Part shown: in pieces, positions 51,489-52,461 of the stretch
Layout: each line of letters starts with the position of its first letter
How positions within the stretch are numbered: the stretch's first letter is position 1
Made by a program: the position numbers and the translations under genes
The notes under the pieces: generated by a model
Told to the model about the DNA's origin: nothing
Databases searched by the model: none
Seen by the model: the letters and a program-made list of their open reading frames with translations, nothing else
Source: Escherichia coli
Lineage (GTDB): Bacteria > Pseudomonadota > Gammaproteobacteria > Enterobacterales > Enterobacteriaceae
Direction: 5' to 3' (one strand)
DNA length: 64,000 bases
Assembly: GCF_041886205.1 (NCBI RefSeq)
Contig: NZ_CP169029.1

Positions 51489-51775
51489 CTGCCGGATGCG
51501 GCGTGAACGCCTTATCCGTCCTACTGTTCAGGCACGATTCGTAGGCCGGATAAGCGCAAGCGCATCCGGCACCAGCGCACAACCGCCGGATGCGGCGTAA
51601 GCGCCTTATCCGGCCTACCGATCCAGCACAGGTTTGTAGGCATGATAAGACGCGTCAGCGTCGCATCAGGCATCTGCGCATAACCGCCGGATGCGGCGTA
51701 AACGCCTTATCCGGCCTACCGATCCGGCACAGGTTTGTAGGCATGATAAGACGCGCCAGCGTCGCATCAGGCATC
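51489..51775. repeat. BIME/REP array (several REP units in alternating orientation)
   Basis: Repeated gccggatgcggcgt(g/a)a(a/g)cgccttatccg(g/t)cctac and gtaggcatgataagacgcg...cgcatcaggcatc units. Confidence 0.85.
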
Positions 51776-51784
51776 TGCGCATAA

Positions 51785-52282
51785 TTATAAAATGATACGC
51801 TCGCCAGCATTTATATCCGTTACGTCCCCCGCCCAATCGATGGGATATAACCCTCGCGCGACATCGCGATGGAACGTTGAGAATGGCCAATCACTCACTT
51901 GCTTTACCCAACCATGCTTTACTGGATTTATATAAATATAATCAACATGATGCCTATAATCTTTGGTATTGCGGATGGCGTGCTCCCAAAAACGTGGTTG
52001 CCAGATATTTTTCAATCCACAAGCATGGGTAAATTGCTTTTTAATTTCCCGCCAGCGCGAGGAAAAATCATCATCGCCTTCAGGTAATGTCCAGATACAG
52101 TGCATATGCTCTGGCAAAACGACCCAGGCGTTGATTTCAAAAGGCCTGTCTCGCTTAACTTTAATAATGGCGTGACGGAGCATCTGGTACTGGGTGGTCA
52201 AGAGTTGGCTTCGACGATTGCGTAAATTCACCGTGAAAAACCAGGTTCCCCCCTTGATGTAATAACGACGATATTCAGACAT
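51785..52282 (-). CDS. rayT: REP-associated tyrosine transposase (RayT/TnpA-REP)
   Basis: 165-aa ORF MSEYRRYYIKGGTWFFTVNL... flanked on both sides by REP elements. Confidence 0.85.
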   Translation of the reverse strand: MSEYRRYYIKGGTWFFTVNLRNRRSQLLTTQYQMLRHAIIKVKRDRPFEINAWVVLPEHMHCIWTLPEGDDDFSSRWREIKKQFTHACGLKNIWQPRFWEHAIRNTKDYRHHVDYIYINPVKHGWVKQVSDWPFSTFHRDVARGLYPIDWAGDVTDINAGERIIL

Positions 52283-52376
52283 GGCGACTCCTTTTTCTCA
52301 ACGGTAAGAAGAAAAGGAAAGGTCGGTAATGAGGTGATGGAATAACAGGAAAGCGGCTCGCAAAAACGCACAGATT

Positions 52377-52461
52377 TGTAGGCATGATAAGACGCGTCAG
52401 CGTCGCATCAGGCATCCGTGCACAACCGCCGGATGCGGCGTAAACGCCTTATCCGGCCTAC
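52377..52461. repeat. REP pair between rayT and yafL
   Basis: tgtaggcatgataagacgcgtcagcgtcgcatcaggcatc ... gccggatgcggcgtaaacgccttatccggcctac; overlaps yafL stop. Confidence 0.8.

Follow-up and report, generated by a model that had tools for sequence, protein, structure and literature searches.

A rayT gene bracketed by y/z2 BIMEs in Escherichia coli: the REPtron with an extra atypical BIME in its 3' array

The rayT gene (yafM, tnpA-REP) and the repeats around it in the window, i.e. the entire 64-kb stretch of E. coli DNA that was analysed, very probably constitute the E. coli REPtron (probability about 0.96): a single-copy, vertically inherited rayT lying between yafL and a truncated flhA/lfhA (fhiA), and bracketed by y/z2 BIMEs. 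A reading of the sequence alone had proposed such an arrangement, with a gene for a REP-associated tyrosine transposase placed between two sets of REPs, and this is exactly the published REPtron (PMC3333891), so named by Ton-Hoang et al. 2012 (PMC3333891; see also Messing et al. 2012, PMC3479197, and Nunvar 2010, PMC2817692). The gene, the structure, the biochemistry, the repeat anatomy and the strain polymorphism of this locus are all already known; what the window adds lies in its allele of rayT and in the make-up of the 3' array.

The identity of the gene product is carried by two kinds of match. The 165-aa ORF, which begins with ATG (ORF listing, and direct reading of the region 51200-52800), matches PDB 4ER8 ("TnpArep", the crystallised MG1655 protein) with E=6.7e-117, and it scores 179 bits (cut-off 80; E=4.6e-53) with the NCBIfam equivalog NF047646 (REP_Tyr_transpos, "REP-associated tyrosine transposase"); together with the RefSeq rayT entry these matches bear out the sequence-only call of a TnpA-REP-type ORF. 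A Pfam scan at the default threshold gave no match, and at E<=10 it gave a sub-threshold Y1_Tnp (PF01797) hit over residues 20-68, with 15.7 bits against a gathering threshold of 23. Being below threshold, Pfam is therefore unusable for filing the protein, for which NCBIfam and the PDB match are usable; the low Y1_Tnp score is consistent with RAYTs forming a clade apart from the IS200/IS605 transposases. By sequence comparison, the ORF is thus classified as E. coli RayT/TnpA-REP, a Group 2 RAYT.

The window allele departs from MG1655 RayT only by F157I, S158N and S165L (162/165 residues identical), all within the C-terminal tail. Over residues 1-164 the differences from 4ER8 are those at 157 and 158, and S165L emerges as the third from an alignment with the MG1655 genomic sequence. 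The active site has been defined as Y115, H59-M60-H61, N119, H123 and E161 (Messing et al. 2012, PMC3479197, whose numbering is used here), and alignment to 4ER8 finds this set intact: the HuH motif H59-M60-H61, the tyrosine Y115 in the context VDYIYINP, and the metal ligands N119, H123 and E161. The HuH and catalytic Tyr motifs, which the sequence-only reading had singled out for checking, are accordingly both present. They are also invariant in the four alleles that were aligned (window, MG1655, M1/5 and N61), the sampled alleles being 95-98% identical. The autoinhibitory tail, spanning about residues 141-165, is present with E161 conserved, and F157I and S158N lie four and three residues before that glutamate. 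A pseudogene reading of the window rayT was rejected: its ORF is intact, unlike the allele of O157 NE92, which carries W99*.

Published work on the MG1655 protein describes RayT as a monomeric HuH/Y1 single-strand DNA endonuclease (PMC3333891, PMC3479197). Its binding of the single-stranded REP hairpin depends both on a 5' GTAG and on the AA/GC mismatch of the stem (PMC3333891). Its cleavage, which is Mn2+-dependent and proceeds via a 5'-phosphotyrosine at Y115, falls at CT dinucleotides to either side of the hairpin, and the enzyme can also rejoin strands (PMC3333891, PMC3479197). H59, H61, N119 and H123 coordinate the metal; the C-terminal tail puts E161 at the scissile-phosphate site and is autoinhibitory, and truncation after G152 raises activity (PMC3479197). 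By analogy with that protein, from which it differs at 3/165 residues, the window RayT may work in the same way. In living cells such an activity would spread REP/BIME units in trans round the chromosome, and it would reshape arrays such as the one beside rayT. This in vivo mobilisation is a proposal built on in vitro cleavage and strand transfer; a mobilome study of 2024 detected no circular intermediates of either REPs or rayT, and arrays could also have come to differ in length through slippage or through homologous recombination between the 101-nt units.

REPs were mapped by a motif scan for the head GTAGGCCGGATAAG with up to 3 mismatches, and the units were confirmed as hairpins by DNA folding. 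The head motif GTAGGCMKGATAAG, searched as an IUPAC pattern at <=1 mismatch, has 13 occurrences in the window, compared with a mean of 0.06 and a maximum of 1 in 100 shuffles. Eight REP units surround rayT (Table 1): six of them, making up three BIMEs, on the 3' side (left in the window), where they alternate in orientation, and two, making up one BIME, on the 5' side. Every one of these units folds as ssDNA into an imperfect hairpin of -9 to -13.2 kcal/mol (z of -2.4 to -3.7 versus shuffles). The four y REPs all fold with a 2x2 internal loop in which AA stands opposite GC, and three of the four keep an intact GTAGGCCGG head. On the rayT sense strand, all the y units are in the REP orientation, with the GTAG head, and all the z2 units in the iREP orientation, a layout that is the same as that of the published 5' REPtron substrate B268 (PMC3333891). 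BIME-2 elements are defined by alternating y and z2 REPs, tandem copies and short linkers between them (PMC3333891); y and z2 alternate in 51584-51773 and in 52378-52461, with two 101-nt tandem copies. Taken as a whole, the 3' array is nevertheless atypical, because the extra unit at 51532-51625 has a short REP of z1 length. The array spans that had been read from the sequence alone, 51489-51775 and 52377-52461, agree with the mapped REPs to within 1-2 nt.

Table 1. Coordinates of rayT, its surrounding repeats and the other REP clusters of the window
Feature	Position	Strand	Basis and remarks
Two REPs, prpB-prpC spacer	4321-4403		Motif scan, gene positions
z1 + y pair, between yahG and yahI	18996-19076		Gene placement by coordinate mapping onto strain wlxctx60
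Outermost y REP of 3' array, degenerate head GTAGGACGG	51490..51524	-	Motif scan, folding; 23 nt past the stop of truncated flhA/lfhA (fhiA)
Atypical 94-nt BIME, boundaries ambiguous by a few nt	51532..51625	.	Alignment; absent from MG1655, ESY002 and O157
Short 31-nt REP of extra BIME, z1-like length, y-type stem	51541..51571	+	Motif scan, folding, alignment, Rfam
naRNA4 matches (RF02564)	51544-51615, 51639-51716, 52381-52458, 55104-55181	- (all; rayT/yafL sense strand)	Rfam RF02564
Two tandem BIME-2 units, 101 nt, 93% identical	51561..51661 and 51662..51762	.	Repeat search
y REP of extra BIME, loop variant GCGCTTACGCC	51584..51618	-	Motif scan, folding, alignment
z2 REP, 3' array	51636..51672	+	Motif scan, repeats, folding, Rfam
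y REP, 3' array	51685..51719	-	Motif scan, folding, Rfam
z2 REP, 3'-array unit nearest the rayT stop codon	51737..51773	+	Motif scan, repeats, folding
rayT CDS	51785..52282	-	4ER8 match, NF047646, RefSeq rayT WP_000006256.1, residue roles, allele alignment
rayT 5' leader, spacer between 5' BIME and start codon	52283..52377	-	Direct reading, promoter scan
z2 REP (GTAGGCATGATAAG variant) of 5' BIME	52378..52414	+	iREP on rayT sense strand; motif scan, repeats, folding
y REP of single 5' BIME	52427..52461	-	GTAG on rayT sense strand; hairpin -12.2 kcal/mol, 2x2 internal loop; contributes to naRNA4 match 52381-52458
Three REPs (degenerate y, z2, y), lpcA-yafJ spacer	55049-55184		Motif scan, Rfam

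The setting of the gene is equally characteristic. Over the 1401 bp used as a query for the locus, E. coli strain wlxctx60 has exactly the same sequence (100% identity). RefSeq annotates rayT in that strain between yafL, which encodes a C40 peptidase, and a flhA truncated at its N terminus, the Flag-2 lfhA/fhiA remnant. The gene order yafL-rayT-fhiA is common to the window and MG1655, and the yafL-rayT-flhA' synteny holds in all the rayT loci that were inspected. The GTAG head (52458-52461) of the 5' y REP supplies, with its final TAG, the stop codon of yafL (252 aa, - strand; 52458-52460), and MG1655 has the same overlap (positions 3882-3885 of the MG1655 locus sequence). Thus, just a BIME and a 95-nt leader separate yafL from rayT. 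A promoter scan found no sigma-70 consensus promoter in this leader, and a promoter and terminator consensus scan of 51400-52600 likewise returned nothing. The + strand has a negative GC skew throughout the eight 8-kb bins; therefore, the rayT sense strand, which also bears the GTAG of the y REPs, would be leading-strand sequence, i.e. the lagging-strand template, and this is the orientation that would be expected for an IS200/IS605-like single-strand mechanism.

Compared with the REPtron of MG1655, whose RayT is the YafM of 4ER8, the window has the same locus, the same y and z2 REP types and, at its 5' side, likewise a single BIME whose y REP lies on the sense strand, whereas it differs in the three tail substitutions, in having three rather than two 3' BIMEs and in lacking the K-12 dinJ-yafQ module. 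This toxin-antitoxin pair is missing from between yafL and dpaA (yafK) at 52461-53507, and yafN-yafO are also absent, since in the annotation of the identical wlxctx60 segment dinB is directly followed by yafP (47423-48927). More broadly, the Group 2 RAYTs of the Enterobacteriaceae have been described as single-copy, chromosomal and vertically inherited, with GTAG-tagged REPs (Bertels et al. 2017, PMC5581495; Corneloup et al. 2021, PMC8266576); E. coli RayT is the model member of this group, from which the window differs at the level of the allele only.

A survey of 5426 complete E. coli genomes found rayT in 3574 of them, typically once (median one place) and never at more than two places, with 3578 places on chromosomes versus 9 on plasmids. 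In a REP scan of seven other loci, the 5' side had exactly one BIME in all the sampled strains that carry rayT. On the 3' side the number is variable: one BIME in O157 NE92, two in MG1655 and ESY002 and three in the window, up to longer arrays with four or more y REPs, y REPs with a 99-bp period numbering three in N61 and four in M1/5, both of which bear rayT. A comparison of REP copy number and orientation with related strains, which the sequence-only reading had called for, hence yields a constant 5' side and a 3' side of one to three BIMEs or 99-bp-period arrays. Other strains have lost the gene or its integrity: hicA-hicB replaces rayT and all the BIMEs in strain 503829 (locus positions 2273-2900), AHB18 has lost rayT and retains three y REPs (locus positions 1666-1939), and the rayT of O157:H7 NE92 is annotated as a pseudogene with the premature stop W99* (locus positions 1813-2310). 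The yafQ gene beside rayT in this last strain is frameshifted. These patterns, namely the one 5' BIME, the variable 3' array, the hicAB replacement and the loss of rayT, are already published: section 13 of PMC3333891 reports a 5' side that is always a single BIME, a variable 3' side, precise excision in B2 and hicAB replacement in B1.

The sequence-only reading had named two observations that would tell against it, loss of the catalytic motifs, and identical REP arrays, showing no local proliferation, at loci lacking rayT. The former was not seen; part of the latter was, in AHB18, which keeps flanking BIMEs after the loss of rayT. In the 2012 survey, moreover, REP numbers differed only slightly between rayT-bearing strains and those lacking the gene (PMC3333891). 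The retention of BIMEs after rayT loss and these minor differences weaken the idea of ongoing local proliferation by RayT, and not the identification of the locus.

The extra unit of the 3' array is a 94-nt BIME composed of a short 31-nt REP, of z1-like length but with a y-type stem, and a y REP; it is because of this unit that the window has three 3' BIMEs as against two in MG1655. It is complete in 344/5426 genomes, and a rayT at least 99% identical to the window allele is also found in 344/5426 genomes, the two sets having been compared by their count and by their shared top record only. In a search for a donor, an identical copy elsewhere was found for the 35-nt y REP only: it is identical to one in the mtlA-mtlD BIME-1, where the partner is a different, canonical z1. 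The REP type of the extra unit is unlike that of its neighbors, and it is therefore no slipped copy of the adjacent BIME-2. That it is a natural footprint of a BIME insertion mediated by RayT, with a weakened autoinhibitory tail possibly having helped, we consider very improbable; were it true, the unit would be in vivo evidence for an activity of RayT so far seen in vitro alone.

Beyond the immediate surroundings of rayT, REP types flanking it recur at four other intergenic sites within the window. The further clusters that the sequence-only reading had listed at 55051-55184, 18997-19075 and 4321-4403 all proved to be real REPs by motif scan (Table 1), and the z2 variant of the cluster in the lpcA-yafJ spacer is the same as that of the REPtron. 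A degenerate REP-like hairpin without a GTAG head (TTATGCCGGATAAAGCG...CATTCGGCA) was also observed in the prpR-yahO spacer (7172-7206, - strand). The REPs are locally dense: the stretch 51.5-55.2 kb holds 11 of the approximately 16 in the 64-kb window. At 584 REPs per genome, the average given for K-12 (PMC3333891), about 8 would be expected per 64 kb. Rfam naRNA4 (RF02564) matches four BIME units at 63.5-79.5 bits against a gathering threshold of 59.5, and in effect this model recognises generic y + z2 BIME units. Its namesake REP325/naRNA4 (Qian et al. 2015, PMC4550694) shares with the window BIMEs the build of a z2 or short REP plus a y REP over about 77 nt, and since the scores are above gathering the window BIMEs are of the repeat type from which the model was built. 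In contrast to REP325/naRNA4, they lie at another locus and are known as repeat sequence alone; the nucleoid-compaction role of naRNA4 is itself disputed by a 2026 preprint.

The rival accounts of the locus differ mainly in what they make of the relationship between the gene and its repeats. The element could be taken for an autonomous insertion sequence of the IS200/IS605 family, in which a tnpA flanked by subterminal hairpins is mobile as one unit. The Y1 transposases of this family (TnpA of IS608 and ISDra2) do share with RayT the HuH and single-Tyr chemistry, the single-stranded substrates and an imperfect hairpin with a 5' tetranucleotide, and the window gene stands between hairpin-bearing ends with a trace of Y1_Tnp in its product. 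However, RayT differs from them in being a monomer that is immobile as a unit and cuts at CT to either side of the hairpin, in its sub-threshold Y1_Tnp score, and in its RAYT-specific autoinhibitory C-terminal extension; IS200/IS605 TnpA has no counterpart of these approximately 25 residues, which include the metal-coordinating E161. Moreover, rayT occupies one fixed locus, is never found at more than two places in any of the 3574 genomes bearing it, and sits between yafL and fhiA wherever its locus was inspected, and those who coined the name REPtron write that it does not move by transposition as one unit (PMC3333891). Copy number and synteny thus led us to reject the autonomous element, to which we assign a negligible probability. 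The same single-copy, chromosomal and fixed position would suit a RayT that is a domesticated nuclease with a host role other than REP spread, such as the processing or maintenance of REP-containing ssDNA or RNA, or a bait-and-cut defence, the BIMEs then being a relic of its transposon origin. Vertical inheritance of rayT (PMC5581495), invariant catalytic residues in alleles of 95-98% identity, and induction of yafM with competence genes, as cited in PMC5581495, all point the same way. Against this stand the absence of rayT from about a third of the complete E. coli genomes and its premature stop in an O157:H7 strain, and no experiment assigns a non-REP host function to RayT; we judge such a domestication to be unlikely.

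A somewhat better case, though one that we still regard as doubtful, can be made for the BIMEs being mainly ordinary 3'-UTR elements (partial terminators, mRNA stabilisers, gyrase/HU sites) of yafL, rayT and the convergent fhiA remnant, their copy number changing via slippage or homologous recombination and RayT adding little or nothing today. The 3' array does lie between convergent genes, the 5' BIME begins within the yafL stop codon, and the four BIME units above the naRNA4 gathering threshold are all on the rayT/yafL sense strand. Being 93% identical, the tandem 101-nt units are prone to slippage, the number of tandem BIMEs differs among strains at other loci too (Ton-Hoang et al., PMC3333891), and BIMEs persist after rayT loss; the 2026 preprint has REPs as context-dependent terminator or stabiliser elements. 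Set against this are the extra 94-nt unit, which as noted above is no slipped BIME-2 copy, and the report that tnpA-REP genes are always flanked by cognate REPs across many genera (PMC3333891). This account can be compatible with the identification of the locus as the REPtron, which remains the explanation that we favor.

Outside the rayT region, the window is collinear with wlxctx60 in blocks only (1-25422, 25420-35184 and 37457-59919), with deletions or replacements between them. At about 25420, a deletion of some 3.3 kb relative to wlxctx60 takes away the greater part of pdeL along with the 3' portion of the autotransporter gene ehaA. An IS1 copy (35184-35952, with the IS1-type terminal repeat GGTGATGCTGCC...) abuts a remnant of 'ABC-three component system' genes (approximately 35952-37205, following the FLI21 annotation); the remnant lies next to the tRNA-Thr(CGT) gene thrW (37459-37534). 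In the otherwise near-identical wlxctx60, the place of these 2.3 kb (region 35184-37534) is taken by about 12 kb of other island content. Past yafV, the segment 59919-64000 departs from wlxctx60 and is like strains with degraded ISAs1 copies, ydcD and a fragment of an Rhs core protein, being about 93% identical to strain G3/10. A tRNA-Ser(GGA) predicted by ARAGORN at 8591-8671 (- strand) overlaps the start of yahM and is absent from RefSeq. The Rfam tRNA model has no match there at its gathering threshold, and the prediction is probably false.

The locus is, then, a textbook REP-associated tyrosine transposase, which matters little as a discovery and is useful as a correctly annotated landmark. 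It bears on the question of whether RayT moves REPs in living cells, and the combination of the extra BIME with the tail substitutions could mark an allele worth testing for such movement.
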